Origin: Bacteroidota bacterium
GTDB lineage: Bacteria > Bacteroidota > Bacteroidia > Chitinophagales > UBA8649
Direction: 5' to 3'
Length of the DNA stretch: 64,000 bases
Assembly (NCBI GenBank): GCA_002862745.1
Contig: PKDX01000048.1
Coordinates: 8,696 to 72,695 of the forward strand
A model generated the notes under the pieces. That model was not told the DNA's origin, made no database searches, and saw only the letters and a program-made list of their open reading frames with translations. The number at the start of each line of letters is the position of its first letter. Within the stretch, counting starts at the first letter, position 1. The position numbers and the translations under genes are program-made. This document shows positions 6,203-61,603 of the stretch, in pieces.

Positions 6203-6227
6203 AGAAATTTATTGCAAATCTTTTTCT

Positions 6228-10845: not shown

Positions 10846-10846
10846 A

Positions 10847-12181
10847 CTATTCAGTTTCGGTATAAATTACACGAATTTTTATTGGCTTGGAAACATTGTT
10901 TCCCCCGCCGAGAGCGATTTGTCCTGGAAGGTGATTGCTCAATGTGGTAAGTACTAATCCAACACTGTATGTAGAGTCTTCAATTTGGTTCCGTAAGTAA
11001 TTGGTAATATTGAATGTGTACCGATTAAAGGTTACACCATTTTCAGATACTTCAGTTTTTCTTCCTCCAAAAGATGTGCTATTCGTAGACGAGTAGTCGG
11101 GAAGAAAAAATAGATCACTTGAGTCTTTGGTAAAGTACAGAAACAAGTTTTCTGGAGCTCCGTAATCCAAGGCATCCGGAGCATCCTGGTCAAATTGATT
11201 GAATTCGATTTCCGCTTTATTAATGATTCGATCTGCAAGTGTATCAAGCCCCTGAATACTTATGATACTTCGGGCAGTTGAAAAAGGCGCTAGGTATAAG
11301 ACGCTGTCAGGACTATTGTTATCGTTTAAAGCCATCTCAACATCACTTCCGCTAGCTACGTTTATATAGCGATTTACACGAGTATTTAACCCTCCACCAT
11401 CAAATAAAAATTCAAGGGACAAGCCGGTTGTATCGTCGTTACTGTAGTACAATGTCATTTGACTTTCTGAGTTCAATAAATCGACTATAGCAAGACCATC
11501 TCCATAGGGCGCTGTGGAATCCGTAAGGATATGTATTCCTTTAAAAAAGCTCCAAAAGTTTGAAGTCCCTGAAAAGGCATCTGTTCCCATATTGGCTACA
11601 AGATTATCAGCAAAGCCTGCATTTAATTCAATACGTAAAAATCCTTGCTTGTATGTGTCATCAATTAAGAAACTATCGGTTAAGCTAGGGGCATATTGTA
11701 GGGCTTGTCCAATCGGAGACGGGTTAGTGGTCAATGAAGAGGATGTCGAATAAGATTCCGTGGATAGGATTTCTTGAGAAATTTCATAGACGTAAAAGTC
11801 CTGGGGAGCCGTCCAGGGTCCATAAAGTTCACTGAGTTTGATAAACAAAATGCAGGAGTCAGCAAAGGCGTTTGTGCCTGGTTCAACATTGTACGTTTCG
11901 GGTAGAAGTTGACTGTAAATGCTATTGCGCTGCCCTCCGAAACGTTGGTCATAGAACGAACCGATCGATGAGACACCTATATTTTTTCCATTAAAGGCAG
12001 AATCGGGAGTTGTGTTGACGGACTCAATGACTACTTGGCCTTCTTCAGAAACAAGGGTCAGGGTATTATCGGGATATAGGGGACTGTCGGGCCCAAGGAT
12101 AATATCTTTTTCACACCCTGTAAAGAGTAGCAGGGTTAAAAGAAGACCAAAGGAAAAGAAGCATCTAGATGGTTTAGACAT
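10847..12181 (-). CDS. Lipoprotein of unknown function (DUF4270-like by position and composition)
   Basis: Start moved to ATG 12181 (MSKPSRCFFSFGLLLTLLLFTGCEKD, lipobox FTGC). The track start 12244 would add a Lys-rich leader overlapping the upstream gene by 71 nt. It sits between glmS and the short glycogen-synthase-like gene, as I recall for Flavobacteriia. Confidence 0.55.
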   Translation of the reverse strand: MSKPSRCFFSFGLLLTLLLFTGCEKDIILGPDSPLYPDNTLTLVSEEGQVVIESVNTTPDSAFNGKNIGVSSIGSFYDQRFGGQRNSIYSQLLPETYNVEPGTNAFADSCILFIKLSELYGPWTAPQDFYVYEISQEILSTESYSTSSSLTTNPSPIGQALQYAPSLTDSFLIDDTYKQGFLRIELNAGFADNLVANMGTDAFSGTSNFWSFFKGIHILTDSTAPYGDGLAIVDLLNSESQMTLYYSNDDTTGLSLEFLFDGGGLNTRVNRYINVASGSDVEMALNDNNSPDSVLYLAPFSTARSIISIQGLDTLADRIINKAEIEFNQFDQDAPDALDYGAPENLFLYFTKDSSDLFFLPDYSSTNSTSFGGRKTEVSENGVTFNRYTFNITNYLRNQIEDSTYSVGLVLTTLSNHLPGQIALGGGNNVSKPIKIRVIYTETE

Positions 12182-12989
12182 TTTCTTCTTCTCGAGAAAC
12201 ATAAAATTGGGCAAAAACTTCTTCTGCTTCTTCTGCTTGTTCAATCTCTACCAAGGTTTTTTTAGAATCCTTAGAAGCTTTTACAACGGATTCATCAACT
12301 CCTTTGGTTAGCGCGATATGGTCAGCATAAAAAATCGCTCCCTTGTGTAAATCTTCCTCTGAACCTGTGCCATAAGGGGCTAGGTCTTCTTCAGTGAGGG
12401 CAGTATCTTCTAAAAACTGATCGGCAAAGTCTTCGGCAATGGATCCCGCCATTTCATTAGGATATGCAGTGTACATTAACTGAGCATCAGCAAAGACAGG
12501 GTTGTCAGCATGTTGGGTCTTAAGCAGGGCAGGAATAACACTTGTCATCCAGCCATGACACTGAATATACTTTGGTGGCCATCCAAATTTGATAACGGTT
12601 TCTAAAGCGCCTTGACAGAAGAAAACCATACGGTTGAGGTTCTCATCATGGAAGTCCCCGTCCTCGTCACAGTAAATGTTTCTGTCCCAAAACAAATCCT
12701 CATTATCTAGGAAATAGACTTGAAGACGAGCTCCTGGGAGTGCGGCGACCTTGATGATTAATGGATAATCTTCGCCATCTACTTCAATATTGATACCTGA
12801 TAAACGTACTACTTCATGTAGACGATGTCTGCGTTCGTTAATCGTTGAAAAGCGGGGCATTAACACACGAATTTCCAATTCTTCATCATGAAGTCGAAGA
12901 GGAATCTTAGATACCGTATTAGCAATCTCAGTTATCGCGACGTATGGGTCGAGTTCGTGGGTTATGATTAAAAGCCTAGACTTTTCCAT
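12174..12989 (-). CDS. Short glycogen/starch-synthase-like protein (N-terminal GT5 domain only)
   Basis: 271 aa beginning MEKSRLLIITHELDPYV, resembling the N-terminal Rossmann half of GlgA. No C-terminal GT-B half and no KTGGL motif. Confidence 0.6.
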   Translation of the reverse strand: MEKSRLLIITHELDPYVAITEIANTVSKIPLRLHDEELEIRVLMPRFSTINERRHRLHEVVRLSGINIEVDGEDYPLIIKVAALPGARLQVYFLDNEDLFWDRNIYCDEDGDFHDENLNRMVFFCQGALETVIKFGWPPKYIQCHGWMTSVIPALLKTQHADNPVFADAQLMYTAYPNEMAGSIAEDFADQFLEDTALTEEDLAPYGTGSEEDLHKGAIFYADHIALTKGVDESVVKASKDSKKTLVEIEQAEEAEEVFAQFYVSREEENV

Positions 12990-27730: not shown

Positions 27731-28483
27731 TTGAACGCTCTCTCCTTGGAATTACCCCACGATATTAACCCGAAAACAGTCCCTCAACACGTGGCCATCA
27801 TAATGGATGGAAATGGTCGTTGGGCTAAGCAACAGGGTAAAATGCGCATTGCAGGACATAAAGAAGGAGTTGAAGCTGCTAAACGAGTGGTAAAAGCCCT
27901 TTCTACCGCAGGTGTAAAGTATGTTACACTCTATGCTTTTAGTACCGAAAACTGGAAGCGTCCAGCTCTAGAAGTTAGTGGTTTAATGGACTTGTTAATG
28001 CTTACCCTTAAGCGTGAACTTAAAGGATTCATGAAAGAGGGCTTTATTCTGCGGACAATTGGTGATATAGAACAGCTTCCTTCCTTAACAAGGGATGCCG
28101 TCAAAGAGGTTGTGCACCAAACCAAAGAGAATACCGGCATGGTCATCAATGTAGCGTTGAGTTACGGCGGCCGTTGGGAAATTGTCGAAACAACGAAAGC
28201 CATAATACGCAGGGCTGTCAATGGGGAATTGGACCTCCAAGATCTTGATGAAGAAACGTTTAGCCAACATCTTCAAACGTCTAATATGCCTGACCCTGAC
28301 CTCCTTATTCGCTCAAGTGGGGAAAAGCGACTAAGTAACTTTCTTGTATGGCAATCGGCCTACAGTGAATACGTTTTTGATGATGCCTTTTGGCCTGATT
28401 TTAATGAGCATAACGTATGGAATGCTCTGCGAGATTTTCAGGGTAGAAACCGTAGGTTTGGAACTTCAAGTGATGCTTCATGA
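27731..28483 (+). CDS. uppS: Undecaprenyl-diphosphate synthase (cis-isoprenyl transferase) UppS
   Basis: HVAIIMDGNGRWA, AFSTENWKRP and IRSSGEKRLSNFLVWQSAYSE. TTG start as given in the track. Confidence 0.9.
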   Translation: MNALSLELPHDINPKTVPQHVAIIMDGNGRWAKQQGKMRIAGHKEGVEAAKRVVKALSTAGVKYVTLYAFSTENWKRPALEVSGLMDLLMLTLKRELKGFMKEGFILRTIGDIEQLPSLTRDAVKEVVHQTKENTGMVINVALSYGGRWEIVETTKAIIRRAVNGELDLQDLDEETFSQHLQTSNMPDPDLLIRSSGEKRLSNFLVWQSAYSEYVFDDAFWPDFNEHNVWNALRDFQGRNRRFGTSSDAS

Positions 28484-33021: not shown

Positions 33022-34217
33022 GAATAGTATCCTTCCTATTAACCTTTTTCGTTTGTGCTTCGTTAACTAGTCAAGGCATCTCCTTTTTTGAGGGGAGTTT
33101 CGACGAGGCAAAGGAACTTGCAGCCAAAGAGGGCAAGTTAATTTTTATGGATTCCTATGCAAAGTGGTGTGGCCCATGTAAACGGATGGCGCGCGATGTA
33201 TTTACTGTAGAAGAAGTAGGGGACTTCTTTAATGCAAATTTTGTCAACTTGAAAATGGACATGGAGACAGAAGAAGGACGTTTGCTGAACAAGACGTATC
33301 AGGTAGCTGTCTATCCAACGCTTTTTGTTCTTGATGCAGATGGCGAAATTATTCTTCGAGAAAAGGGCTATCGCGATGCGCGCGGACTCCTGCAAGTTGG
33401 TCGCAAAGCACTCCTTCCTAGTGAATCGCAAATGCTAGATATGGCTGATCAGTTCCAATCCGGTGAATATGATGTGCTCTTTTTAGTGGATTACCTCCAG
33501 GCATTGCAATGGACAGGAAAGGAAGGGCAGTCCAATGTAATGGCTAAGCTGGCGGAAAGCGTTTCCCCAAGCGACATGCAACTTGAAAAAGTTCAGCAAG
33601 CATTTTTGGGATATAGCCCTCTAGCTTCCGGATATTATCCAACACATATTCTCAAGGACTACCAAAATGTCTTTATCGACCAATTGGGTAAAGAAAAATT
33701 TGAGGAGACTGTGCTCTCTATTCTAAAAGGGCTATGGCAAGGAGCGACTAAGGAGGAGTATGGTAGGTTTATCACTCCCGAAGATTTTGATACCTATTAT
33801 GATGTGTTTAAGTCAATCAACAATAAACGTTATAAAAGAGAAGTATACTTATGGAAAATGGCTTTTGCTGAGGCCTTTGGGGATTGGGATGTCTTTTTAA
33901 AGGCCGCAAACACCTATTTTAAATCAAAAGCAGGTAAAACTGATGAAACGACGCTTATGAGCGCATCGTGGTCTCTTTACCACTCTGATCCAATCTACGA
34001 CGACCAAGTCTTGGCTTGGACGAATCGCGTGATGGAAAGCAGCGCTAACCAGAGTGCGCCCTATTTTCTTCAAGCCTATCTTTTTATGCGTCAAGAGAAT
34101 TATGAAAAGGCCGACGAAGTGATGCAGCGCTGTATGGTATTCTTAACGGAAGATAGTCCAGAGTATAAGGATGCATCCATAATTAACACAATTCTAGAAA
34201 CGCAATTGAGCCGGTAG
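33018..34217 (+). CDS. Secreted thioredoxin-fold protein with a helical C-terminal domain
   Basis: Signal peptide, WCGPCKRM redox motif, and a roughly 270-aa helical tail. ATGA overlap with the murI stop. Confidence 0.65.
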   Translation: MRIVSFLLTFFVCASLTSQGISFFEGSFDEAKELAAKEGKLIFMDSYAKWCGPCKRMARDVFTVEEVGDFFNANFVNLKMDMETEEGRLLNKTYQVAVYPTLFVLDADGEIILREKGYRDARGLLQVGRKALLPSESQMLDMADQFQSGEYDVLFLVDYLQALQWTGKEGQSNVMAKLAESVSPSDMQLEKVQQAFLGYSPLASGYYPTHILKDYQNVFIDQLGKEKFEETVLSILKGLWQGATKEEYGRFITPEDFDTYYDVFKSINNKRYKREVYLWKMAFAEAFGDWDVFLKAANTYFKSKAGKTDETTLMSASWSLYHSDPIYDDQVLAWTNRVMESSANQSAPYFLQAYLFMRQENYEKADEVMQRCMVFLTEDSPEYKDASIINTILETQLSR

Positions 34218-35213
34218 GTCTGCTAATGCTTGTGTGAGCCTTTTGTAGGTGAGCTCTTTTTGGGACAACATCGTATAGTTTGATTTCTTTGCCATTTGTT
34301 CGGCAAGGTAAACTTGTTCAGTTTGCCCTGGTGTTGGGATAACTAGAGCATCGATATCTAAGCATAATAAATCCATTAGTGTACTGTAACCACTTCGGCA
34401 GATTAACGCTTTGCATCCATTAAGCTTTGTGGCAAGTTCCTGGCCATGAAGATGATTGAATACATGTATATGAGGCGGTAGGTTGAGCGAGATAGTGCCC
34501 TCGTTTGGAAGTCCTCGAACTAGAAAAATTTGGAGATGTTTGAGGGGTTTCAGAATACTTATCAAGCGTTCTTCGAGGTGACTACGCGTAGGCTCAGGAC
34601 CGGATAATATAAGACCTATATCATAACAATACGAGCGCTCTTCTTTTGGAATTTTATAGGTGGCTAGGTCAGATAGGAATCCTTTATATGTTTTGTCTCT
34701 AGAATGCGTGCTAAGGTGCCCACTTAAATTATCCGGTGGCGCATGATCAGGAACCCAGAGGGATGTAAATGGGGCCATATAATGATCCAACTTTTTGTAA
34801 AACAATTGCGCAAAGAATTTAGAAGTTGGTACAATAGGTCTTAGCTGATGGCTTAAAAAATGAGATGGCAGGTCATGATGATAACATCCATAGCGATTAT
34901 CAGAAACAATCTGTTCAATGTTATGGTCCTTGCAAAACGCTGAGACAACGCTGTGTTCATCTTCAATTGCTCGAAGGATTTTTCGAGCTTGAAAGGCCAT
35001 GTTGATTATCATGCTACTCGAAGCATATCGAACGCTGTAGGCCGGAAGCTCTAAAAAGGAATGATCGGGGAAACGTTTTTTTAGGTGGGTTAGAGCAACT
35101 CCATCACTAGCAATAGTCACGTCGTGGCCTTCATGAATCAATCGCTGAATCAGCACGCTGCTCCGACTTGCGTGACCAAGCCCCCAATTAAGTACACAAA
35201 AAAGCGTTTTCAC
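34194..35213 (-). CDS. GT-B fold glycosyltransferase (GT1/GT28, MurG-like)
   Basis: 339 aa. N-terminal NWGLGHASRS glycine-rich motif and a C-terminal GYSTLMD...TPGQTEQ donor-binding-like segment. Confidence 0.6.
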   Translation of the reverse strand: MKTLFCVLNWGLGHASRSSVLIQRLIHEGHDVTIASDGVALTHLKKRFPDHSFLELPAYSVRYASSSMIINMAFQARKILRAIEDEHSVVSAFCKDHNIEQIVSDNRYGCYHHDLPSHFLSHQLRPIVPTSKFFAQLFYKKLDHYMAPFTSLWVPDHAPPDNLSGHLSTHSRDKTYKGFLSDLATYKIPKEERSYCYDIGLILSGPEPTRSHLEERLISILKPLKHLQIFLVRGLPNEGTISLNLPPHIHVFNHLHGQELATKLNGCKALICRSGYSTLMDLLCLDIDALVIPTPGQTEQVYLAEQMAKKSNYTMLSQKELTYKRLTQALADLPAQLRF

Positions 35214-42373: not shown

Positions 42374-43597
42374 TCACGGTTTGGTGTTAACCATTCGACC
42401 TTTCCAAAGGTAGCCTTTTCCATTGGATACAATACTCTGAAGTCCTAATACTAGGTTGTAGAGTACACTGATGACTTGGAAGAACGGCATAAGGAGAATA
42501 TCAATAAACTTTAGAGGATATTGGACATATTTAGCGCCATAAAAAATAAGGATGCCATCCACGAGGGTTTTTATAAAAACTCCAATGCATGTAATTCCAA
42601 CATATTTTAGATCCTGATTGTAGAGGCTTATGCCAATAACTCCGAGAAATAAGGCAACAAAAAGTTGGGTAAAAAACATGAGCATCATAACAGCGGTTAT
42701 CTGTTTTGAGGGCATTGTAAATGTTTTTGAAGCCCATCGCCTTCGCTGGTTCCAGAATGTTGGCAGATCGGAAGGGAATTGGGTCTTCATTATGGCATTG
42801 GGATGGAAGCAGAATGCGATATCGTTTGGGTATTTACCATGTACCTTTCGCAAAAGGATAATATCATCTCCCGACGGTTTTCCCTCCCAAGGATAATATG
42901 CTTTTATTTCTTCAAACACTTGGCGCGATATTAAAAGATTCGCCCCATTGGCCATAAGCGGAAGACCTGCCATTAGACTAGTCCCACTAAGTATGGTTAA
43001 GGCAGCTTGTTCCATCATCGCAAAATGTCGTACAAACCCACCTTGGTCAATGGGTTTGATGCCGGCTAGCACCATTTTGCATTGGTTGTTGCGGTTAATC
43101 TCACGGGTAAGGCCCTTGAGCCAACTAGGTTGCGCAATACAATCCCCATCGGTAAAGGCGAGAAATGAAGCTTTGGAAGCCTTTGCACCCATAGTTAAGG
43201 CCCGCTTCTTATTCGGCAGATTTGCATAGGATGCAGATAACTTATGATGCAAGCGAATAATCTGAAGGGCTATTGGCCATTCCTTTTGTTCAATTTGGTT
43301 AAGTACTGACAAAGACCTTTCATCATTGGTAAAGTCATCGACAATGATTACCCCTAAGTGGTCTGCAGGATAGTCTTGTTGCGCAAGTGAATCAATGGTG
43401 CGTTCTAAGAGGGGCTCATTTCGGACGGAAAGAACAATGTCGATGGTAGGCAATTTATAGGGCTTGTCTTTCATGATTTCTGCCGCCTGACCCTCCTTTT
43501 TAGCAAGACGAATAGGCCAGTGCCAAAACAACCACATAGCAAAAAAACAATAGGCTATGACTACCCCCATCCCTATGTAAAGAGTCACTATGAACAT
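42374..43597 (-). CDS. Membrane-embedded family-2 glycosyltransferase with a processive-type QxxRW motif
   Basis: 407 aa. N-terminal TM helix, SVRNE...IVDDF (DxD region), FTDGDC, QRRRWASK, and about 3 C-terminal TM helices. Confidence 0.75.
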   Translation of the reverse strand: MFIVTLYIGMGVVIAYCFFAMWLFWHWPIRLAKKEGQAAEIMKDKPYKLPTIDIVLSVRNEPLLERTIDSLAQQDYPADHLGVIIVDDFTNDERSLSVLNQIEQKEWPIALQIIRLHHKLSASYANLPNKKRALTMGAKASKASFLAFTDGDCIAQPSWLKGLTREINRNNQCKMVLAGIKPIDQGGFVRHFAMMEQAALTILSGTSLMAGLPLMANGANLLISRQVFEEIKAYYPWEGKPSGDDIILLRKVHGKYPNDIAFCFHPNAIMKTQFPSDLPTFWNQRRRWASKTFTMPSKQITAVMMLMFFTQLFVALFLGVIGISLYNQDLKYVGITCIGVFIKTLVDGILIFYGAKYVQYPLKFIDILLMPFFQVISVLYNLVLGLQSIVSNGKGYLWKGRMVNTKP

Positions 43598-43682: not shown

Positions 43683-46499
43683 ATGCCAAAAGATACATCG
43701 ATTCAGCACATTTTGATTTTGGGTAGTGGCCCAATTATCATTGGACAAGCCTGTGAATTTGACTATTCCGGAAGTCAAGCATCAAGAGCCATTCGAGAGG
43801 AAGGGATTAAGGTATCCTTGCTCAACGACAATCCAGCGACGATTATGACGGATCCAATGATTGCGGACCATATCTATCTGAAGTCATTAAAGCCAGAGAC
43901 CATTGTCGAGATTTTGTCTTCGAGCGACATCGATACTGTCTTGCCTACGATGGGCGGTCAAACGGCATTAAACCTGGCTAAGGAATGCTCGGAGCTTGGT
44001 ATTTGGGAAAAGCACAACGTAAGAGTACTTGGTGCAGATTTAAATGCGATTGAAAAAACAGAAAACAGAGAGGAGTTTAGACAGTTTATGATGGATATTG
44101 GAATTAAGATATGTCCGTCAAAAGTTGCCAATAGCTTTTTAGAAGGAAAGTCGATTGCTCAAGAATTGGGCTTCCCTTTGGTTATTAGACCTTCATACAC
44201 TCTTGGAGGGTATGGCGGTGGTTTTGTCTTTGGTCCGGAGGATTTTGACGAAAAACTCACTAGAGGATTGGAAGCTTCTCCAACCCATGAAGTGCTTATT
44301 GAAAAAGCGGTAATCGGTTGGAAGGAATATGAACTTGAGTTGCTTCGTGATAGTGCCGATCATGTCACGGTGGTTTGTACGGTAGAAAATCTTGATCCCA
44401 TGGGGATTCACACGGGAGATTCTGTTACCGTTGCTCCGGCTATGACGCTCCCTGATACAGTTTACCAGGATATGCGCAATCAAGCAAAGCTCATGATGAA
44501 AGAGTTAGGTTCTTTTGCTGGAGGATGTAACATCCAATTTTCGGTCAATCCAGAAACAGAGGAAGTTTACTCAATAGAAATGAATCCGAGGGTTTCAAGA
44601 TCGTCGGCATTGGCTTCAAAAGCTACGGGGTATCCCATTGCAAAAATCGCTGCGAAACTAGCCATAGGTTACCGACTTGACGAGTTGGACAATCCCATTA
44701 CAGGAAATACTTCAGCATTATTTGAACCTGCACTAGACTATGTTATAGTGAAGATGCCTCGATGGAACTTTGATAAGTTTAAGGGGGCGGATGCGACGCT
44801 TGGGTTACAAATGAAATCAGTGGGTGAAGTCATGGCGATTGGAAGAAACTTCCAAGAAGCCCTTCAAAAAGCCTGTCAGTCGCTCGAAAATAACCGTATT
44901 GGACTGAGTTCACCCAAAGGAGTTTATTTGAAAACGGACAAGATTCTTGAAGGATTGAAAAATCCATCTTGGGACCGAATTTTTTTAGTTAAAGAAGCCT
45001 ATAAGCTCGGAGTGCCAACGGCAAAAATTCAAGAGCTAACAAAGATTGATATTTGGTACCTCAAGCAGATTCAAGAGTTAGTTCAAATCGAGGAGCGCTT
45101 CCGAGGGAAATCAATGGATGAGGTTTCTGATGAGATGCTCTTTAGTGCTAAGCTGAAAGGATTTAGTGATGCCCAGTTGGCAGAAGCCATGGGTAATATC
45201 ACCGAGGATGAAGTGTATGATGAGCGCCATGCACGCGATATTAAGAGAGTGTATAAGGTCGTCGACACCTGTGCGGGAGAATTCAAGGCAAAGACGCCTT
45301 ATTTCTACAGCAGTTTTGGGTTGGAAAATGAAAGCGAGGTCACAGAAAAACCCAAGGTGATTATTCTGGGTTCTGGTCCTAACCGTATCGGGCAGGGTAT
45401 TGAGTTCGATTATTGTTGCGTTCATGGTGTACAAGCTGTGCAGGAAGCAGGATATGAAGCCATCATGGTGAATTGTAATCCCGAAACCGTCTCGACAGAT
45501 TTTGATTTAGCCGATAAGCTGTATTTCGAACCGATTTATTGGGAGCACCTTCGAGAGATTATTGATTTAGAAAAGCCTCATGGTATCATTGTTCAACTTG
45601 GTGGTCAAACCGCGCTAAAACTCTCCAAACGAATAAAAGACTACGGAGTAAAGATCTTAGGATCAAGTTATGATGCGATGGATATGGCGGAAGATCGTGA
45701 ACGATTCTCTGACCTTCTGAAGGATTTAGGTATTCCTTATCCAAAATATGGTGCAGCTAAAACGGCAGAAGAAGCTATAGTTGTAGCCAACGAGGTTGGT
45801 TACCCTGTTCTTGTTCGTCCTTCCTATGTTCTAGGTGGACAGCGTATGAAAATTGTAATCAATGATGATGAGTTGACGACAGCAGTTTTGAAAATCTTGA
45901 AGTATCATCCTGATAACAATATTTTGATTGATCACTTCTTAGTTCGAGCAAAGGAGGCAGAAGTAGACGCTATTTTTGATGGGAAAAATGTTCAAATCAT
46001 GGGGATTATGGAACATATTGAGCCTGCGGGAATCCATTCAGGGGATTCTAATGCAGTCCTTCCTCCATTTACTCTTGGCGAGTTTGTGATTAAGCAAATG
46101 GAAAAGTTTACTGCGGAGATCGCTAAGGCACTCGATGTAAGGGGGTTGCTCAATGTTCAGTTTGCGATTAAAGACGATGAAGTTTACGTTATTGAAGCTA
46201 ATCCAAGAGCTTCAAGAACTACGCCTTTTATCTGCAAGGCCTATGGCATTCCTTATCTAAATATTGCCACCAAGGTTATGGTTGAGGCCAATACGCTGGA
46301 GGACTTTACCATGGAGCCTAATCTCGAAGGTTACGCCATTAAAGAGCCTGTTTTTTCATTCCATAAATTTCCTGACGTCAATAAAGAGCTCGGGCCGGAA
46401 ATGAAGTCAACAGGAGAGCGAATCTATTTTATAAAAGATACCCTTGACCCTTACTTCAGAGACTTGCATAAAGTGCGTTCTATGTACCTTAGACGGTAG
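43683..46499 (+). CDS. carB: Carbamoyl-phosphate synthase large subunit CarB (short form lacking the C-terminal MGS-like allosteric domain)
   Basis: 938 aa. Duplicated ATP-grasp halves beginning GSGPIIIGQACEFDYSGSQA and GSGPNRIGQGIEFDYCCVH. Only about 30 aa follow GPEMKSTGE. Confidence 0.9.
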   Translation: MPKDTSIQHILILGSGPIIIGQACEFDYSGSQASRAIREEGIKVSLLNDNPATIMTDPMIADHIYLKSLKPETIVEILSSSDIDTVLPTMGGQTALNLAKECSELGIWEKHNVRVLGADLNAIEKTENREEFRQFMMDIGIKICPSKVANSFLEGKSIAQELGFPLVIRPSYTLGGYGGGFVFGPEDFDEKLTRGLEASPTHEVLIEKAVIGWKEYELELLRDSADHVTVVCTVENLDPMGIHTGDSVTVAPAMTLPDTVYQDMRNQAKLMMKELGSFAGGCNIQFSVNPETEEVYSIEMNPRVSRSSALASKATGYPIAKIAAKLAIGYRLDELDNPITGNTSALFEPALDYVIVKMPRWNFDKFKGADATLGLQMKSVGEVMAIGRNFQEALQKACQSLENNRIGLSSPKGVYLKTDKILEGLKNPSWDRIFLVKEAYKLGVPTAKIQELTKIDIWYLKQIQELVQIEERFRGKSMDEVSDEMLFSAKLKGFSDAQLAEAMGNITEDEVYDERHARDIKRVYKVVDTCAGEFKAKTPYFYSSFGLENESEVTEKPKVIILGSGPNRIGQGIEFDYCCVHGVQAVQEAGYEAIMVNCNPETVSTDFDLADKLYFEPIYWEHLREIIDLEKPHGIIVQLGGQTALKLSKRIKDYGVKILGSSYDAMDMAEDRERFSDLLKDLGIPYPKYGAAKTAEEAIVVANEVGYPVLVRPSYVLGGQRMKIVINDDELTTAVLKILKYHPDNNILIDHFLVRAKEAEVDAIFDGKNVQIMGIMEHIEPAGIHSGDSNAVLPPFTLGEFVIKQMEKFTAEIAKALDVRGLLNVQFAIKDDEVYVIEANPRASRTTPFICKAYGIPYLNIATKVMVEANTLEDFTMEPNLEGYAIKEPVFSFHKFPDVNKELGPEMKSTGERIYFIKDTLDPYFRDLHKVRSMYLRR

Positions 46500-46515: not shown

Positions 46516-48768
46516 GTGTTGCTGAACAAACACCCATTAGATTGGCCTGCCGAAGGCAAGCGTCTTGATCTTGAGAAGCATGACCTTCCTCATAGATCAT
46601 CCTCCACAGAGTGGTGGTATATGCACGCGCATTTGGATGGAAAAAACCAGAAGGGTGAGCCTAGGAAGCTGGCTATGTTCGCCTCATTTTTTCTTCGCCT
46701 CCTTGAAGGTGATACGAAAACAGGTCTGCCTAATTATGCGTATTCTCTGACCTGGGCGATATCCGATTTGGATAACAAGACCTATCATCCCATTTCCTTA
46801 GTGGACAAACAGGCGCCAAAGATTGGATTGGAACGGTTGCAAAAAGGAGATGTGGTGCGCGATCCTTATCTCAAAAAGGCCGCATTAGAAGTCGTAAAGC
46901 GCGGTAAAGTCCCTTTCCCAGACGAGATGTTTACAGGCGAAGCTGGACTATCATGGGAAGCGCTTGATATAAACTACGATGGCAACCGATTCATAAAAGA
47001 AGACGATGCCTCTTACACACTTCAATGTGACCGTAGCTTAAAACAACAGGGAATTCAGCTAAATTTTTCGCCACGTTGTGCCCCATGTTTACATGGCGAT
47101 AAGGGAGTCGTCGCTGGAGTTAAGTCAGAGGACATGTTCTATTACTTCATTCCGAAAAATGATGCTAAGGGTAAAGTTTTTTTACAAGATGAGGTGATTG
47201 AGGTGGAAGGAAGCTTGTGGTATGACCATGAGTTTGGATGCTATCCCCAAGGAAACAAGCGCACAAGTAAAGCGGATGTGGGCTGGAATTGGATTGCCAT
47301 TCAGTTCGATCACGGAGAGCAGGTGACTGCGTATGATCTGCGCAATGATAAAACAGGTAGTTCTAAAGGGGCTTATCTCGTTGCCGTTGACAAAGAGGGG
47401 AAACAACAAACATCCAATGAGTTTTCTCTAACCCCTAAGAATAATAAGCGCTGGACCTCACTTCGAACCTTTAATGAATACCCTACCCATTGGAAGTTAG
47501 ATTGTGAGTCACTTGATTTAAAGGTGGAGGCTTCTGCAGTATTTGACGCTCAGGAGTTTGGAACGGTGCTCTCAAAACCAGCCTTTTGGGAAGGAAGGCT
47601 TGATGTAAAAGGATGGTGGAAAGGTAAGGAGGTAACGGGTAAGGCATACTTTGAACGAAGTGGTTTTCATAAAAACGAAACCCTTCAAGATTTTTTTAAG
47701 GCAGTATCCAAAGAAACCTTGAAGTCAGTTCAATACATTATTCCCAGGGCCATGGATACTGAAAAATTCCAGGAACTTGTTGCCGTTAAGGGAAATACCC
47801 TTTGGACACAGGGAGTCCAGCGCGACATCTTCTATGAAGCCTTAATTAAGCCGATACGAACCATAACGGATCGAGGGGGAAAATCATGGCGCTCCTATGC
47901 CACAGTTGCTTGTTCAGACATCGTAGGAGGGAATGCTCAATTGGCTAAAGACTGGCTGGCCTTACCGGAACTTATGCATGTTGGCTCACTTATGGTCGAT
48001 GATGTTCAGGATAAGTCGGCCTTGCGGCGAGGTGGCCCTGCTGCTCATCATATGTTCGGAGAAGCTATAGCGATAAACAGCGGATCAGCGGCCTATTTTT
48101 TGGGCCAGATTTGTGTGTATATAGCGGATATAGATCCTGAACTAAAACTGGATATATATCACTTATACTTCGAGGCTTTACGAGCGGCTCATACGGGTCA
48201 GGCCATGGACTTGTATGGTTTAGATTACTTGATGGATGAGGTGGTAGAACACGGTAAGGGGAAACTGCTGGTCCAGCGCGTGAAGGCTATCCATCGACTA
48301 AAATCTGCGGCACCCGCCTCTTATCTTGCCCGAATAGGAGCCATGCTTGGTGGAGGAAGTAAGGAACAAATTGAAGGCTTGGCGAATTACTTTGCCGCAT
48401 TAGGTATTTCTTTTCAGATTATAGACGATACGTTGAATTTGAAGGGCTTTAAAGATGGCCTAAAGACTAAGGGGGAAGACATTACGGCAGGTAAGATTAC
48501 CTATCCAATGGCTCGTGCCTTTTCCATGCTTTCTAAGAGAGCTCGCCGTGAATTGTACTCCATTATACAGTCCAAAACAGAGGATATAGAGGTAATAGCT
48601 CGGGCGATTGCACTTATGGATTCATGTCAAGCTATTGATCTTGCCGAAAAGGAGGCAAGGACAAGTTTAGAAGCTGCTTGGCGCAGATTAGACCCTCTTG
48701 TAGAAGACAGTATGGTAAAAATCAATTTACGGGCCTTTAGCTGGTATGTATTAGACCGCACCTACTGA
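46516..48768 (+). CDS. Fusion protein: N-terminal AttH/CrtC-like (carotenoid 1,2-hydratase / lipocalin-like) domain plus C-terminal trans-prenyl diphosphate synthase (type-III GGPPS-like)
   Basis: N-terminal half has SSSTEWWYMHAHL, GSLWYDHEFG, GWNWIAIQF and YPTHWKL...FWEGRLDVKG...GKAYFERSGF. C-terminal half has the first Asp-rich motif MVDDVQDKSALRRG (DDVQD at 47998..48012) and the second motif FQIIDDTLNL (48424..48438), followed by GEDITAGKITYP. GTG start. Confidence 0.7.
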   Translation: MLLNKHPLDWPAEGKRLDLEKHDLPHRSSSTEWWYMHAHLDGKNQKGEPRKLAMFASFFLRLLEGDTKTGLPNYAYSLTWAISDLDNKTYHPISLVDKQAPKIGLERLQKGDVVRDPYLKKAALEVVKRGKVPFPDEMFTGEAGLSWEALDINYDGNRFIKEDDASYTLQCDRSLKQQGIQLNFSPRCAPCLHGDKGVVAGVKSEDMFYYFIPKNDAKGKVFLQDEVIEVEGSLWYDHEFGCYPQGNKRTSKADVGWNWIAIQFDHGEQVTAYDLRNDKTGSSKGAYLVAVDKEGKQQTSNEFSLTPKNNKRWTSLRTFNEYPTHWKLDCESLDLKVEASAVFDAQEFGTVLSKPAFWEGRLDVKGWWKGKEVTGKAYFERSGFHKNETLQDFFKAVSKETLKSVQYIIPRAMDTEKFQELVAVKGNTLWTQGVQRDIFYEALIKPIRTITDRGGKSWRSYATVACSDIVGGNAQLAKDWLALPELMHVGSLMVDDVQDKSALRRGGPAAHHMFGEAIAINSGSAAYFLGQICVYIADIDPELKLDIYHLYFEALRAAHTGQAMDLYGLDYLMDEVVEHGKGKLLVQRVKAIHRLKSAAPASYLARIGAMLGGGSKEQIEGLANYFAALGISFQIIDDTLNLKGFKDGLKTKGEDITAGKITYPMARAFSMLSKRARRELYSIIQSKTEDIEVIARAIALMDSCQAIDLAEKEARTSLEAAWRRLDPLVEDSMVKINLRAFSWYVLDRTY

Positions 48769-48774: not shown

Positions 48775-49497
48775 TTAGATATCACCGAGTTGGGGTCGTA
48801 TGATAATATCTTCTACTACACTTCGGCTTGATGTATTATGGCATTCAAAAACAAGTTGAGCAATATCTTCAGCAGGCATTAATCGGTCTTCATCAAGTCC
48901 GCTTTCTGACCATGAGCGAGTCCAAGTTGCCCCGGGGTAAATGGCACTGACTCGGATATTTTTATCTTGGGTTTCAAGCCGCAGCGCCTTGGCAAAGCCT
49001 GTCAAGGCAAACTTTGATATAGTATACATTGAACCTGCAGGATAGGCCGCTAGACCTGCAATGGAACTCATAAGAATAATGTGACCATGTCCTTGTTCAA
49101 TCATTTTGGGAAGCAGGAGCTGATTAAGGTGGTAGGCAGAAAAAAAGTTAACCTCCATCATATCGCGCATGGCTTGAAGATTTTTTTCGCCAACAAGGTC
49201 TCCTGGAAGAAAGATACCTGCATTATGGACGAGCACATCGATGGTCCCACTTGAGGCAAGTACTTCTGAAGCAAAGCGATCGACATCACTTTCTTTCAAG
49301 AAATCAGCTTGTATGGCTTGAACTTCTTGAGGGTTTTTGCCTGTAAGAGGTAACTGCTCAATGTCGTGTTTTGCTCGATCAAGATTTTCCTTATTTCTAG
49401 CGCAAAATGTGATATTAAAACCATTTGCATAGAATTTTTTGGCTATTTCTAGTCCAATACCTGCACTTCCTCCTGTGATTATTGCTCGCTTCGACAT
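48775..49497 (-). CDS. Short-chain dehydrogenase/reductase (SDR)
   Basis: ITGGSAGIGLE (TGxxxGxG), NAG, and the YTISK (YxxxK) catalytic motif. ATG 49497 (MSKRAIITGG) chosen over track start 49551. Confidence 0.8.
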   Translation of the reverse strand: MSKRAIITGGSAGIGLEIAKKFYANGFNITFCARNKENLDRAKHDIEQLPLTGKNPQEVQAIQADFLKESDVDRFASEVLASSGTIDVLVHNAGIFLPGDLVGEKNLQAMRDMMEVNFFSAYHLNQLLLPKMIEQGHGHIILMSSIAGLAAYPAGSMYTISKFALTGFAKALRLETQDKNIRVSAIYPGATWTRSWSESGLDEDRLMPAEDIAQLVFECHNTSSRSVVEDIIIRPQLGDI

Positions 49498-49540
49498 AAA
49501 TGTGTTAGTATTTGATGTATTTTCCTTTAAAATAAAACGA

Positions 49541-50284
49541 ATGACACTCATTCGGAGTTTAGGACGGTATTTAATGTTGTTATGGCAGGGGTTAACTCGC
49601 CCAGAGAAATTCTCTATGTATGCAAGAGAAACATTTCGTCAAACCCATGATATTGGCATTGGTTCCTTACCTATTATTGCTATTATATCTACCTTTCTTG
49701 GCGCAGTAACCGCTGTGCAGTTTGCCAAACAGTTTCTTGACATGACCTTACCTTTGCCTATGTCTCTCATAGGATATATTGTGAGAGACTCATTGATTTT
49801 GGAACTTGTTCCTACGATTGGATCTCTAATGCTTGCTGGAAAGGTTGGATCTAACATCTCTTCGGAGCTTGGTTCTATGAGGGTGACCGAGCAAATTGAT
49901 GCCTTGGAAATTATGGGTGTAAACACCAAGGCTTATTTGATTATGCCAAAAATATTGGGTGCTCTGATTATTGTACCATTGCTTTTTGCCTCTGCAATCA
50001 TATTGGGTATTGTTGGTGGATTCCTAGCGGGATATCTTGGGGATTTTTTTTCCTGGGAGGAATATAAAACAGGGCTTCAAGATACATTTACCTCATACTA
50101 CACGGTAATCTTTTTGCTTAAGTGTTATGTTTTTTCCTTTATTGTAACTAGTGTAAGTTGCTATCAAGGATACTATGTAAAAGGAGGAGCTTTGGAAATT
50201 GGAGCGGCGAGCACAAGGGCTGTGGTCAATAGCTCCATTATGATTATTGTTACAAATTTCCTCATCGCTTTTTTGTTCCTATGA
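49541..50284 (+). CDS. MlaE-family ABC transporter permease
   Basis: About 247 aa, multi-TM, with MRVTEQIDALEIMGVN typical of MlaE/TTG2B permeases. ATG 49541 chosen; track start 49439 overlaps the divergent SDR gene. Confidence 0.75.
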   Translation: MTLIRSLGRYLMLLWQGLTRPEKFSMYARETFRQTHDIGIGSLPIIAIISTFLGAVTAVQFAKQFLDMTLPLPMSLIGYIVRDSLILELVPTIGSLMLAGKVGSNISSELGSMRVTEQIDALEIMGVNTKAYLIMPKILGALIIVPLLFASAIILGIVGGFLAGYLGDFFSWEEYKTGLQDTFTSYYTVIFLLKCYVFSFIVTSVSCYQGYYVKGGALEIGAASTRAVVNSSIMIIVTNFLIAFLFL

Positions 50285-54019: not shown

Positions 54020-56074
54020 ATGTCATTAGCACTTGGTCCAGCTATCTTTTTTTCAATTCTTGCGGGAGTTGGCTTTGCCTTAGCGCTCTATTGGAGGGAG
54101 TCTACCTTTGATCAAGAGGATGTTTTAACTCGACGCGTTCGCCTGGCAAGTGCCTTTCTCCGAGCGTCGTCGACAGCAATCATAGTCTTTCTGTTGTTAA
54201 GTCCATGGCTGGAAGAAGAAGAGATTCAAGAGAACCAGGTTGCCGTGCAACTGTTAATTGATGGCTCAGCGTCCGTCGATTTTGTGGATGACTCCTCCAC
54301 AATTAGTTATCTGATTAACCGCCTCAAAGAAGAATTTGCGGATTCAGTAATGCTTGAGATAAGCTCTTTTTCCAATGAGGTTGGCAAAGAAAGAGGGAGT
54401 TTGCTGAATCCCTATGAAACAAACATTGTTCAAAGCCTAGAAGATGCCGAAAGAACTTTTTCTTCTTCCGATGCGATCATTTTAGCAAGTGATGGGATAC
54501 ATAATGCAGTGGTAAATCCCTATTCACTTCTAAGTAAAAAGCCAATTTACACATTGGGTTTAGGCGAAATACGTGGAGTAGAAGATTTTAAAATTGTTGA
54601 TGTGCGTCATCCTAGAGTGGTAAATGCTGGCGATGAAGTGGAGGTGCAAGTAGATTGCCAAGCCAATTTGCTCAATGGTGCAGAGATAGGCCTTGAAATA
54701 TCGCATAATGAAGGCGGTCTCCCTTTAGCTTCGGTTGATTTCACTATCTCACAGGATGTTTTTGATACCACAATAACGTTAACCATTCGTCCTCAAGAAA
54801 AGGGAATACAGGCCTTCACAGTTAAGGCAAATTGTACAATGGATGAATTGACACAAGCCAACAATACTGCTTCCTTTTTTATGGAGGTAAAAGATGGTAG
54901 ACAAAATATATTGCTTTGTGCAGCAGGCCCTCATCCTGATATTCGTGCCATACATAAGGCATTATCTGAGTATCAGACAATGAATGTGTCGCTGCATTTT
55001 ATGAAAGATGGCCCACCTACATTGAATGGCCTAGATGGCATAATATGGCATAATTTACCTGATGGGCGTTATGGAGAATTAGCCATTAGTCGAGATAGCA
55101 GAGTTCCGCAGTTATTTATCGTTGGCGCAGCAACTTCTGCAGAGCTTTATAATGCGTTGTTTGATGGCATTGTGCTTCCCACGGGAAGTGCTTGGTCAGC
55201 TAATCGAAAAGCGGTTTTTCAACCATCATCAATACCCTTGATTTTTACAAGTGAAATTCTTCAGCGTCTTGCGGAGATGCCATCCATTCGATATCCTAGT
55301 GGTGTTGTTCATAAGCTCAATATATCGGCCCAAACCTTGCTTACCGAGGGGCTTCAAGAGCCTGTGTTGTCCAACCTTTCCAGGGGAGGGAAAAAGATCT
55401 TTACGCTGATTGGTGAAGGGTGGTGGAAATGGCAAATGGCAGAACGCCAATCGTATGGGAATGCGGATGCCTTTAAGACCTTTTTTCAGCAGCTAACCAA
55501 TGAGTTGATTCAGGACTTTTCACAAGAACGTCTGTTGCTTTCGTGGACACCTAGTCGTCCCAAGGGAAGGGAAGAGGTTATCTTTTCGCTTGATGCCTTA
55601 GGAGAGAATTACACAAGGGTTATACCTCGAAACATAGAAATAAATCTTAGTGATAGTAAGAGTGATTGGGATACAACCTTTGTTGCTAAAAGCAATAATG
55701 AAGGAGTCGTAAGTTCTGACCCTATTCCCCTTCGTTCGGGAATGTATCTTGTGCAAGCAAGTGCACTAGTTGATAACAAAGAGCTTTCAACGAATGCAGG
55801 AATTGTTATCGAAGAGGATTTGCGTGAATACCATGTAACAAGAAGAGATACTACACTCCTTCAACATATTGCACAGGCTAATCAAGGAGTTTATCATAGT
55901 AAGGAGCAGGTGGACAACCTTATCTCAGATGTCATGAATCGGATTAGTGGATTGAAGAAAAATCAAGTGATTCGTTCTGTAAAACCAAGGGTCAATGAAA
56001 TGCTTTGGTTGTGCCTTGCCTTATTGTTTTTTGGGTCTGAGTGGGTTCTGCGAAAATATGCGGGCTCTTTTTAG
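54020..56074 (+). CDS. Membrane-anchored protein with an N-terminal double-TM region and a vWA-like domain
   Basis: 684 aa. Two N-terminal TM helices, a DxSxS-type motif (LLIDGSASVDF), a later IILASDG, and a C-terminal TM helix (MLWLCLALLFFGSEWVL). Starts 7 nt after fabG. Confidence 0.5.
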   Translation: MSLALGPAIFFSILAGVGFALALYWRESTFDQEDVLTRRVRLASAFLRASSTAIIVFLLLSPWLEEEEIQENQVAVQLLIDGSASVDFVDDSSTISYLINRLKEEFADSVMLEISSFSNEVGKERGSLLNPYETNIVQSLEDAERTFSSSDAIILASDGIHNAVVNPYSLLSKKPIYTLGLGEIRGVEDFKIVDVRHPRVVNAGDEVEVQVDCQANLLNGAEIGLEISHNEGGLPLASVDFTISQDVFDTTITLTIRPQEKGIQAFTVKANCTMDELTQANNTASFFMEVKDGRQNILLCAAGPHPDIRAIHKALSEYQTMNVSLHFMKDGPPTLNGLDGIIWHNLPDGRYGELAISRDSRVPQLFIVGAATSAELYNALFDGIVLPTGSAWSANRKAVFQPSSIPLIFTSEILQRLAEMPSIRYPSGVVHKLNISAQTLLTEGLQEPVLSNLSRGGKKIFTLIGEGWWKWQMAERQSYGNADAFKTFFQQLTNELIQDFSQERLLLSWTPSRPKGREEVIFSLDALGENYTRVIPRNIEINLSDSKSDWDTTFVAKSNNEGVVSSDPIPLRSGMYLVQASALVDNKELSTNAGIVIEEDLREYHVTRRDTTLLQHIAQANQGVYHSKEQVDNLISDVMNRISGLKKNQVIRSVKPRVNEMLWLCLALLFFGSEWVLRKYAGSF

Positions 56075-60769: not shown

Positions 60770-61603
60770 TTATTCTGCAGCTTCGTCTTCTTTGTTGTCT
60801 TCTTCTTTGTTGTCTTCTTCTGCAGGAGCTTCTTCAGCGGCTGCTTCTTCAGCAGGGGCCTCTTCAGCGGGAGCTTCCTCAGTGGCTGCTTCTTCAGTAG
60901 GAGCTTCTTCGGCGGGAGCTTCTTCAGCAGGGGCCTCTTCAGCGGGAGCTTCCTCAGTGGCTGCTTCTTCAGCAGGAGCTTCTTCGGCGGGAGCTTCTTC
61001 AGCGGCTGCTTCTTCAGCAGGGGCCTCTTCAGCGGGAGCTTCCTCAGCGGCTGCTTCTTCGGCAGGAGCTTCGACAACAGCTGCTTCCTCTGCAGGAGCG
61101 CCTTCTTCGTCAGCCGTTGCTTCATCCTCTGCAGGAGCAGCTGCCTCTTCTAGTTTAGCTCTTCTTGCTGCTAGGATTGAAGCGCTCTTTTCGAGTTCTT
61201 TTTTCGCCTTAGCTTTTTTACTTTCTTGAATTTTTTGAGCGTTCGCTTCGATTGCCTTTTGAATCTCAGCTTCTTTATTGGCTGACCATTCCGCAAATTT
61301 TGCTTCAGCTTCTTCTAGCGTTAAAGCACCTTTACGTACTCCACGCATTAGATGCTTTTTGTAGAGGACACCCTTGTAGGATAGAATTCTGCGCACCGTT
61401 GGTGTTGGTTCTGCTCCATTCTCAAGCCACTTTAATGAGGCATCTACATCTAAATCGATAGTTGCTGGACTGTTTACAGGATTGTAGCTTCCTATACGCT
61501 CGATATAGCGTCCGTCTCTTTTTGACGTTACATTAGCGGCTACGATATAATAGTAAGGACGTCCTTTTCGTCCGTGTCTCTGAAGTCTTAGTTTTACTGC
61601 CAT
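60770..61603 (-). CDS. rpsP: 30S ribosomal protein S16 with a long low-complexity C-terminal extension
   Basis: The N-terminus MAVKLRLQRHGRKGRPYYYIVAANVTSKRDGRYIERIGSYNP is canonical S16. The ORF continues in frame for about 190 more residues, first Lys/Glu/Ala-rich and then (A/P/T)-E-E-A repeats. Confidence 0.9.
   Translation of the reverse strand: MAVKLRLQRHGRKGRPYYYIVAANVTSKRDGRYIERIGSYNPVNSPATIDLDVDASLKWLENGAEPTPTVRRILSYKGVLYKKHLMRGVRKGALTLEEAEAKFAEWSANKEAEIQKAIEANAQKIQESKKAKAKKELEKSASILAARRAKLEEAAAPAEDEATADEEGAPAEEAAVVEAPAEEAAAEEAPAEEAPAEEAAAEEAPAEEAPAEEAATEEAPAEEAPAEEAPAEEAPTEEAATEEAPAEEAPAEEAAAEEAPAEEDNKEEDNKEDEAAE
60821..61070. repeat. Imperfect in-frame tandem repeat (15-nt / 5-codon unit EEAPA; larger copies start at 60851, 60926 and 61016) inside rpsP
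   Basis: The block agcaggggcctcttcagcgggagcttcctcag[t/c]ggctgcttcttc recurs three times, at spacings of 75 and 90 nt. All frames on both strands lack stops here, which explains three spurious ORFs in the track. Confidence 0.75.

Follow-up and report, generated by a model that had tools for sequence, protein, structure and literature searches.

A prokaryotic fusion of an AttH/CrtC-type double beta-barrel with a type-III-like prenyl diphosphate synthase: a candidate bifunctional source of hydroxylated isoprenoids

What does a bacterium gain from a single polypeptide that joins a hydratase-like beta-barrel module to an enzyme building prenyl chains? This question is raised by one gene in a 64,000-nucleotide stretch (hereafter the window) of contig PKDX01000048.1 from a Chitinophagales genome (Bacteroidota bacterium, GenBank assembly GCA_002862745.1). 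The gene has a GTG start and encodes a product of 750 amino acids (aa), as read from the list of open reading frames (ORFs) and its translation; its coordinates, stop codon included, are collected in Table 1. An earlier interpretation made from the letters alone (the sequence-only reading) described the protein as an AttH/carotenoid 1,2-hydratase (CrtC)-like domain fused to a eukaryote-like geranylgeranyl diphosphate (GGPP) synthase and proposed that the first domain protonates the prenyl chain made by the second. We favour, at a probability of roughly 0.5, a bifunctional enzyme in which a GGPP synthase and an acid-catalysed isoprenoid hydratase, possibly a cyclase, together supply a hydroxylated prenyl scaffold. 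The fusion is a solid and testable lead and not a demonstrated new system.

The domain layout is unambiguous. Pfam profiles identified CrtC_N (PF07143; E 1.3e-16, 62.2 bits against a cut-off of 22.5) and Lipocalin_9 (PF17186; E 6e-23), which together occupy residues 31-383, followed by polyprenyl_synt (PF00348; E 2.8e-45, 154.9 bits against a cut-off of 27), in agreement with the domains assigned by the sequence-only reading; the strings that it had quoted (EWWY, GSLWYDHEFG, GWNWIAIQF, FWEGRLDVKG, GKAYFERSGF, DDVQD and FQIIDDTLNL) were all found, at the positions it had given. The 750-aa protein contains no Pfam match to a terpene synthase, and neither a signal peptide nor a transmembrane-like segment. 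The same fusion was retrieved in more than 1,100 protein clusters by a word-indexed search. The best 120 homologues contain the same three domains within 700-795 aa, the sole exception being a 521-aa fragment without PF07143; homologues share the N-terminus of the window protein (e.g., the full-length P0003, 'MLLNT..') and are named in the databases 'polyprenyl synthetase family protein' or 'geranylgeranyl pyrophosphate synthase/predicted secreted hydrolase'. An exhaustive search, for which the N-terminal half by itself was the query, returned 2,382 representatives at E<=1e-3, and the best 150 of these were again mostly fusions of 720-870 aa, down to 26-30% identity. Apparent stand-alone relatives of the N-terminal domain among the best representatives were rejected as contig-end fragments of fusions, such as P0121, which stops within the prenyltransferase and ends with '...REIVDRG'. 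In the only accessible candidate for gene fission, the stand-alone relative P0234 (L095), no isoprenyl diphosphate synthase (IDS) gene lies adjacent, only a convergent MMPL gene. That a sequencing or assembly frameshift had joined two adjacent genes was named as a danger by the sequence-only reading; the same protein of 745-795 aa is encoded without a break in hundreds of independent assemblies, its junction is conserved and structured, and the composition is uniform with an even GC content across the gene region, so that we regard the probability of such an artefact as negligible.

The sequence-only reading had asked how widespread and how taxon-restricted the architecture is. It is neither rare nor confined to one taxon, as several bacterial phyla and haloarchaea carry the fusion: it occurs in Chitinophagales/Saprospiraceae, Cytophagales, Myxococcota, Bradymonadia, Cyanobacteria, Acidobacteriota and haloarchaea. 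Among cultured organisms it was found in Membranihabitans, Telluribacter humicola and Spirosoma panaciterrae, while the best 80 loci come mostly from metagenome-assembled genomes (MAGs) of Chitinophagales/Saprospiraceae, one Chitinophagales MAG being ~95% identical to the window. In a scan of one genome per species, 365 of ~186,000 species genomes encode the fusion, and because of this patchy distribution a role as housekeeping farnesyl diphosphate (FPP) or GGPP synthase was rejected.

The N-terminal half belongs to a superfamily whose characterised AttH-like enzymes, CrtC, kievitone hydratase and the archaeal hydroxy-GDGT (glycerol dialkyl glycerol tetraether) synthase Hgs, all hydrate an isoprene C=C bond to a tertiary alcohol, and C20 geranylgeraniol is also a substrate of CrtC. 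By mutagenesis, His239, Trp241, Tyr266 and Asp268 (RgCrtC numbering) were shown to be essential for CrtC, and Asp268 was proposed as the proton donor; the supplement of the CrtC paper lists RHRWGPIAP and GHAYLDSNEG as motifs. For a profile-profile comparison (hhalign) we used four crtC genes annotated in photosynthesis clusters on plasmids; in it, the CrtC motif Y-F-D-R-N-W-G with Tyr266 and Asp268 falls on W235-Y-D237-H-E239-F-G241 and the invariant CrtC W-x-W on W257-N-W259, an alignment that is weak by itself (E 0.04) and usable only together with the Pfam match and the motif register. The catalytic Asp268 is thereby kept, Asp237 standing on the Asp of Y-x-D in all four annotated CrtCs. Counted over 89 full-length family members with identities down to ~26%, residue 237 is acidic in 87 (Asp in 76, Glu in 11), Glu347 is invariant (89/89), Gln346 and Trp235 are each found in 86, His238 in 79, and Trp257 and Trp259 in 77-78. 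Several of these residues belong to a buried acidic and polar set, Glu32, Asp237, His238, Glu239, Gln346, Glu347, Glu359 and Glu380, that is conserved down to 26% identity. The motif EWWY is also present in the AttH protein 2ICH ('iEWWY'). Furthermore, in 13 members the Asp-rich motifs of the prenyltransferase have decayed and the triad of the N-terminal domain is kept, whereas the reverse was observed in only four.

An AlphaFold2 model of the 750-aa protein, built from a 48-sequence alignment, has a mean predicted local distance difference test (pLDDT) score of 91.3 and a predicted template modelling (pTM) score of 0.89. Its N-terminal half is all-beta and was superposed by Foldseek on 2ICH (E 9e-20, target template modelling (TM) score 0.83) and on kievitone hydratase 7A0T (E 4e-14, target TM 0.79); by phmmer the window protein matches 2ICH at 1.4e-11. 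These data bear on the possibility that an ordinary GGPP or FPP synthase carries a non-catalytic lipocalin-like appendage, which would bind, shield or deliver the product, tether the enzyme to the membrane or regulate it. Lipocalin-type folds are classic ligand carriers, lipid binding was proposed in the paper on 2ICH, and database entries label the protein no more specifically than 'polyprenyl synthetase family protein'. Yet there would be no need for a carrier to keep an invariant buried set of acidic and polar residues down to 26% identity, the N-terminal motif outlasts the catalytic motifs of the prenyltransferase in the 13 members, and the closest functionally characterised structural match, kievitone hydratase, is an enzyme. 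We consider an inert appendage quite improbable; the conservation pattern fits a catalytic N-terminal domain rather than a passive lipid binder, and the survival of its motif in 13 members against four favours such a domain. Besides P0171, the members combining a decayed prenyltransferase with an intact N-terminal motif are P0155, P0191, P0194, P0212, P0214, P0215, P0218, P0224, P0232 and P0249, and P0273 and P0278, from the cluster of P0171 itself, also count among these 12 further members. The three metagenomic 888-aa proteins P0171, P0273 and P0278 carry, in addition, a PX (phosphoinositide-binding) domain at the N-terminus as well as a leader of low complexity; in this cluster both Asp-rich motifs of the prenyltransferase are lost and the acid of the N-terminal domain is Glu instead of Asp. 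This PX-containing variant is possibly eukaryotic.

The C-terminal half resembles the type-III GGPP synthases of eukaryotes, as the sequence-only reading had claimed. Its first Asp-rich motif DDVQD contains no insertion, the residues at positions -5 and -4 are the small Gly490 and Ser491 and neither is aromatic, and the region H-V-G490-S491-L-M-V-DDVQD aligns gap-free with the human ...NASLLIDDIED. The second motif, FQIIDDTLNL, ends with Asn in DDTLN as in type-III GGPP synthases; Asp637 and Asp638 are present in 77-79 of the 89 members, and position 641 is Asn in 57 and Asp in 18. The basic residues for diphosphate binding, Lys456, Arg459, Arg504/505 and Lys596, are likewise present (conserved in 77-82 of 89). 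The top sequence matches in the PDB are plant GGPP synthases, the prenyltransferase domains of fungal PvCPS and PaFS and the yeast and human GGPP synthases, and Foldseek superposed the C-terminal half on GGPP synthases with target TM scores of 0.88-0.91 (archaeal GGPP synthase). Identity to the human enzyme is 26% over 287 residues; the human GGPS1 sequence used is 100% identical to 2Q80. In this alignment Met487, Tyr527-Phe528, His559 and Lys596 correspond to human Leu56, Tyr96-Phe97, His123 and Lys151. Tyr527 is invariant in family alignment A2, and His559, which aligns within the human 'ELHQGQG', is invariant in alignments A1 and A2. The human pocket residues presumably correspond to those of the yeast enzyme, as judged from their motifs. 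The yeast enzyme is capped at C20 by Leu67, Tyr107 and His139 (review, PMC10762340). None of the equivalog thresholds of NCBIfam was reached (IdsA, 124.8 bits against 468; GGPP_syn, 87.7 against 500; CrtE, 86.4 against 460), and the best partial matches are models of short-chain IDSs, namely IdsA, encapsulin-cargo polyprenyl transferase, GGPP synthase and CrtE. By its motifs the prenyltransferase looks active and short-chain, with C20 as the likely product.

How the two halves are connected was apparent from the same model. Strands span residues 31-382 and helices follow from residue 390 on; the junction helices 390-408, 415-422, 428-431 and 436-451 are predicted at high pLDDT, and the positions F393, V397, S398, P410, P446 and R448 are invariant in the family alignments. 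Because the strands end at 382 and helices begin at 390, the apparent linker is, in the model, made up of the conserved first helices of the prenyltransferase, leaving no flexible linker between the domains, and the high pTM indicates a single fixed inter-domain arrangement.

Gene associations were surveyed at the best 80 loci, which fall into 21 lineage groups, by clustering the surrounding ORFs and annotating the recurrent ones. A glycosyltransferase of family GT1 or GT28 adjoins the fusion in 5 of the 21 lineage groups. In Spirosoma and Telluribacter the fusion is followed by an LMF1/HTTM-like membrane protein, an FkbM methyltransferase, a GT28-like glycosyltransferase and a cytochrome P450; in the cyanobacterial bin L081 the order is fusion, FkbM methyltransferase and GT1, in the cyanobacterial MAG L069 the fusion precedes an LMF1-like protein, in Membranihabitans marinus (L067, GT1 at 8267-9520) and two Chitinophagales MAGs a GT1 gene lies directly beside it, and in the Bradymonadia MAG L082 a PlsC-type acyltransferase and an epimerase follow. 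Moreover, in six clusters of proteins of 1,489-1,550 aa, a sulfotransferase and a GT1 are fused N-terminally to the same core. Since glycosyl and sulfo transfer need a hydroxyl acceptor, as a hydratase would supply, a hydroxyl-bearing product is implied by these associations. The proposal that the N-terminal domain protonates the prenyl chain gains support from the conserved Asp with its buried polar residues, the fold in common with kievitone hydratase and the recurrent glycosyltransferases.

The four-module proteins (P0160, P0284-P0288 and P0270) contain Sulfotransfer_3, GT1 (Glyco_transf_28/EryCIII-like_C), the CrtC-like double barrel and polyprenyl_synt and are very acidic; they could represent a pathway, contained in one polypeptide, that leads to a sulfated isoprenoid glycoside. 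One is encoded in a haloarchaeon (L008, 10001-14485, GCA_025041195.1), where its neighbours contain HTH_10, BAT and HVO_0513 domains, as expected of haloarchaeal genes. The candidate biosynthetic operon of Spirosoma panaciterrae DSM 21099 (L078, 5041-12456, with the fusion at 5041-7335 and the accessory genes at 7360-12456; related loci L077, L073, L069 and L081) encodes an LMF1/HTTM-like protein of 760 aa and a glycosyltransferase resembling GT28/monogalactosyldiacylglycerol synthase; we know of no bacterial function for LMF1-like proteins. The fusion of L081, a bin labelled Cyanobacteria, is at least 65% identical to those of the Spirosoma loci L077 and L078 and has the same downstream FkbM gene, which suggests recent horizontal transfer or a mis-binned contig. 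A soluble family of 200-270 aa without Pfam match (c43) lies directly 3' of the fusion in three lineages, Myxococcota, Bradymonadia and 'Deltaproteobacteria' (L072, 5131-5943; L076, 8290-8898; L083, 8232-8945), and overlaps the fusion stop codon in L083; no homologue of it was found in the window.

From the architecture, the fold, the residue conservation, the distribution and the gene associations we infer a cytoplasmic bifunctional isoprenoid enzyme with the following putative course of reaction. The type-III-like trans-prenyl diphosphate synthase of the C-terminal half would extend an allylic primer with isopentenyl diphosphate units, most likely as far as the C20 compound geranylgeranyl diphosphate. 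The N-terminal half, composed of two beta-barrels, would act as a cofactor-free Bronsted-acid catalyst, in which Asp237, on the strand W-x-D-H-E-F-G, would deliver a proton to a trisubstituted C=C bond, most probably that of the isopropylidene group at the omega end of the chain, with help from His238, Glu239, Gln346 and Glu347. The aromatic residues Trp34, Tyr209/210, Trp235 and Trp257/259 would steady the resulting tertiary carbocation, and water would quench it to a tertiary alcohol, unless ring closure comes first. Because the modules are joined without a flexible linker, it is proposed that the chain is passed directly from one to the other. Where the respective genes are adjacent or fused, the hydroxylated scaffold would then be glycosylated, methylated, oxidised or sulfated, giving an isoprenoid glycolipid or terpenoid glycoside, so that the fusion probably starts the synthesis of a sugar-decorated isoprenoid lipid.

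Several points weigh against this course. His239, Trp241 and Tyr266 of CrtC are not kept as such: Trp235 takes the position of Tyr266, and the H-x-W pair falls on the region of D206/F208, which has neither His nor Trp. As only one of the four residues that CrtC requires persists, the mechanism of the N-terminal domain may differ, and the local alignment to CrtC is, as given above, weak by itself. The CrtC likeness claimed by the sequence-only reading holds as far as the Pfam match and the catalytic Asp are concerned, but not as strict CrtC identity: because three of the four catalytic residues differ, the window protein is, on these residues, a member of the AttH/CrtC superfamily but not a CrtC sensu stricto. 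The chain length is predicted from alignment, and among fungal prenyltransferase domains of this type there are producers of C20 and of C25 chains; a fixed domain arrangement in AlphaFold2 is no proof of channelling. Finally, no tailoring genes adjoin the fusion in the lineage of the window and in most Chitinophagales, and the fate as a glycoside is for this reason extrapolated from other lineages.

Should ring closure prevail, the N-terminal half would be a beta-barrel terpene cyclase, in which the cation initiated by Asp is caught by an internal double bond to yield a cyclic diterpenoid and not a simple hydrate, in class-II-like chemistry carried out by a non-canonical fold. For CrtC itself a mechanism resembling that of squalene-hopene cyclase was proposed, and the superfamily includes acid-catalysed enzymes of epoxide and cationic rearrangement (PenF, AsqC) and the two-beta-barrel pericyclases Fsa2 and Phm7, so that cation chemistry beyond hydration is conceivable for the N-terminal domain. 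Furthermore, the domain order is that of the fungal chimeras with N-terminal cyclase and C-terminal prenyltransferase, whose prenyltransferase domains rank among the closest PDB matches, and P450 genes, like the one next to the fusion in some lineages, are typical members of terpene clusters. We nevertheless consider a cyclase of this kind distinctly unlikely, as prenyl chain cyclisation is not known from any member of the AttH/CrtC superfamily and the recurrent glycosyltransferases need a hydroxyl group that is absent after plain cyclisation, unless water terminates the reaction or a P450 or phosphatase acts.

A further explanation is offered by carotenoid biosynthesis. The protein might unite CrtE and CrtC functions, the prenyltransferase providing GGPP for phytoene and the N-terminal domain acting as carotenoid 1',2'-hydratase that creates the 1'-hydroxy psi-end of saproxanthin-, flexixanthin-, myxol- or myxobacton-type pigments, with the glycosyltransferases forming carotenoid glycosides. 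The N-terminal half scores above the Pfam threshold for CrtC and keeps the catalytic Asp, and the association with glycosyltransferases would fit carotenoid glycosides equally well. Saprospiraceae, Cytophagales, Myxococcota, Cyanobacteria and haloarchaea are, in addition, known for hydroxylated or glycosylated carotenoids. Against it, phmmer searches seeded with CrtB, CrtI and CrtD detected no homologue in the window, as the sequence-only reading had noted for crtB and crtI, or within +/-6 kb at the 80 loci, unlike genuine crtC genes, which in the comparison loci sit between crtD and crtB inside crt clusters. The replacement of CrtC His239, Trp241 and Tyr266 also argues against it; a fusion of the first with a late step of the pathway would leave no intermediate to be passed on directly, despite the rigid connection between the domains, and the LMF1-like, FkbM methyltransferase and PlsC-type acyltransferase neighbours are no known carotenoid genes. 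A carotenoid enzyme is, in our view, rather unlikely.

No published characterisation or description of this architecture was found in the full-text literature, subscription-only papers lying outside its coverage, in agreement with the sequence-only reading, which knew of no characterised member. Among the known systems, CrtC of Rubrivivax gelatinosus and Thiocapsa roseopersicina shares a homologous N-terminal barrel, in which a strand with aromatic-x-Asp precedes W-x-W, and the chemistry expected for the fusion is that of CrtC, in which water is added to a terminal isoprene C=C bond without a cofactor. CrtC is, in contrast, a stand-alone protein of ~280-400 aa encoded inside crt clusters, whereas the window protein has the additional signature of an AttH-type Lipocalin_9 barrel, a fused prenyltransferase and no crt linkage in the surveyed loci. 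The AttH-like NE1406 (2ICH) and kievitone hydratase (7A0T), which hydrates a dimethylallyl group, have the same two-beta-barrel fold, and 2ICH has the motifs EWWY, W-x-D-x-E and Q-E in common with the window protein; both are single-function proteins that are secreted or periplasmic, while the window protein lacks a signal peptide and has a cytoplasmic prenyl diphosphate synthase attached. A prokaryotic precedent within the AttH family for a lipid-modifying role of the fold is Hgs, which converts a C=C bond of isoprenoid membrane lipids to a tertiary alcohol (bioRxiv 10.1101/2025.10.20.683597). Hgs differs in being a stand-alone enzyme, acting on C40 tetraether chains after a radical-SAM (S-adenosylmethionine) desaturase, with no chain-building enzyme fused. 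The fungal bifunctional terpene synthases PaFS, EvVS and PvCPS likewise combine an N-terminal modifying domain with a C-terminal type-III-like synthase of GGPP or geranylfarnesyl diphosphate, and two of their prenyltransferase domains, 8V0F and 6V0K, rank near the top of the PDB sequence matches. They possess an alpha-helical class I or II cyclase domain and a long flexible linker, whereas the window protein is prokaryotic and has an all-beta N-terminal half, a putative acid catalyst, and a structured junction. With the type-III GGPP synthases (human 2Q80, yeast 2DH4) it shares the uninserted DDxxD, the small residues at -4/-5, DDxxN, and a Tyr-Phe pair and a His that would form the floor of the pocket; it differs in its bacterial host, its N-terminal extension of 385 aa and in reaching no curated equivalog score.

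Fusions of prenyltransferases with the next enzyme have been a rich source of new terpenoid chemistry in fungi, and the fusion described here would bring the same principle to prokaryotes with a different, cofactor-free catalytic fold. The formation of tertiary alcohols by selective hydration of unactivated C=C bonds is chemically hard, CrtC-type enzymes are sought as biocatalysts, and a soluble hydratase that makes its own substrate would be attractive for this purpose. As carriers include abundant uncultured Chitinophagales/Saprospiraceae of freshwater, wastewater and marine habitats and the family is widespread, any lipid product could be an isoprenoid common in the environment and might serve as a biomarker. 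A complete and compact pathway is suggested both by the four-module protein of haloarchaea and by the operon of Spirosoma, and Spirosoma panaciterrae DSM 21099, Telluribacter humicola KCTC 42819, Membranihabitans marinus and M. maritimus are cultured carriers for genetics. Tentatively, and as a possibility rather than an expectation, the fusion might represent a third architectural class of bifunctional terpenoid synthase, in which a beta-barrel acid module rigidly fused to a type-III-like prenyltransferase would yield a hydrated, or water-terminated cyclised, C20-C25 scaffold and would found a family of isoprenoid glycolipids of Bacteroidota, Myxococcota, Cyanobacteria and haloarchaea, with the haloarchaeal ~1,500-aa sulfotransferase-GT1-hydratase-prenyltransferase running the whole pathway.

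Table 1. Features of the fusion gene and its product (nucleotide positions within the window)
Feature	Position	Strand	Basis
Fusion protein gene	46516..48768	+	ORF list, translation, full-length homologues
First beta-barrel, CrtC N-terminal lipocalin domain, residues 31-241	46606..47238	+	PF07143, AlphaFold2 strands 31-242, 2ICH/7A0T superposition
EWWY motif Glu32-Tyr35, family signature, barrel start	46609..46620	+	Glu32 in 82/89, Trp34 in 86/86 non-gap; present in 2ICH
Putative catalytic-acid motif W235-Y-D237-H-E239-F-G241	47218..47238	+	Alignment to CrtC Y-F-D-R-N-W-G
Second beta-barrel, Lipocalin_9, residues 252-383, with W257-N-W259 and Q346-E347	47269..47664	+	PF17186, conservation
Helical connector, conserved, residues 390-451	47683..47868	+	AlphaFold2 helices, invariant positions
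trans-Isoprenyl diphosphate synthase domain, residues 442-701	47839..48618	+	PF00348, PDB sequence matches, Foldseek
First Asp-rich motif DDVQD, residues 495-499	47998..48012	+	Asp495/496/499 in 76-77/89
Tyr527-Phe528, candidate chain-length pocket floor	48094..48099	+	Aligns to human GGPP synthase Tyr96-Phe97
His559, second candidate chain-length cap residue	48190..48192	+	Aligns to human GGPP synthase His123
Second Asp-rich motif DDTLN, residues 637-641	48424..48438	+	Aligns with human FQIRDDYANL

In the window itself the fusion gene is preceded by carB (43683..46499) at a distance of 16 nt, with no terminator-like site in between, and a convergent gene for a short-chain dehydrogenase/reductase (SDR; 48775..49551) follows after 6 nt, as the sequence-only reading had described. 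A conserved operon in this lineage was rejected, as the carB/SDR arrangement is kept only at >=91% identity (L003, L004, L010-L013), and homologues at 55-58% identity have other, unrelated genes beside them; across Chitinophagales no neighbourhood of the fusion is conserved. Homologues of the GT1, GT28, LMF1, FkbM and P450 accessory genes were not found in the 64-kb window. It contains two glycosyltransferase genes within 12 kb upstream of the fusion (42374-43597 and 34194-35213, both on the minus strand), one encoding a GT2 enzyme that weakly resembles HpnB and MftF and whose L003 orthologue matches Glyco_transf_21, the other a Glyco_trans_1_3/GT28_C protein; a link of these two genes to the fusion is unsupported, as they are not homologous to the GT1 and GT28 partners found elsewhere. 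The other ORFs were assigned by Pfam to housekeeping functions and include dprA, lpxK, glmS, panC, uvrB, uvrA, uppS, bamA, recA, carB, sucD, fabG, HPPD and ffh. UppS, the cis-prenyltransferase undecaprenyl diphosphate synthase (27731-28483, plus strand), is encoded in the usual arrangement NAD kinase...uppS-bamA-skp; it needs FPP as primer, and the fusion is the sole trans-prenyl synthase within the window. An ORF of 684 aa (54020-56074, plus strand) has no match in Pfam or NCBIfam and occupies the same position in a relative of 93% identity (L003, 17507-19564, 685 aa). Ribosomal protein S16 (60770-61603, minus strand; 276 aa) possesses a low-complexity C-terminal extension of ~200 residues with a weak Extensin-like match.

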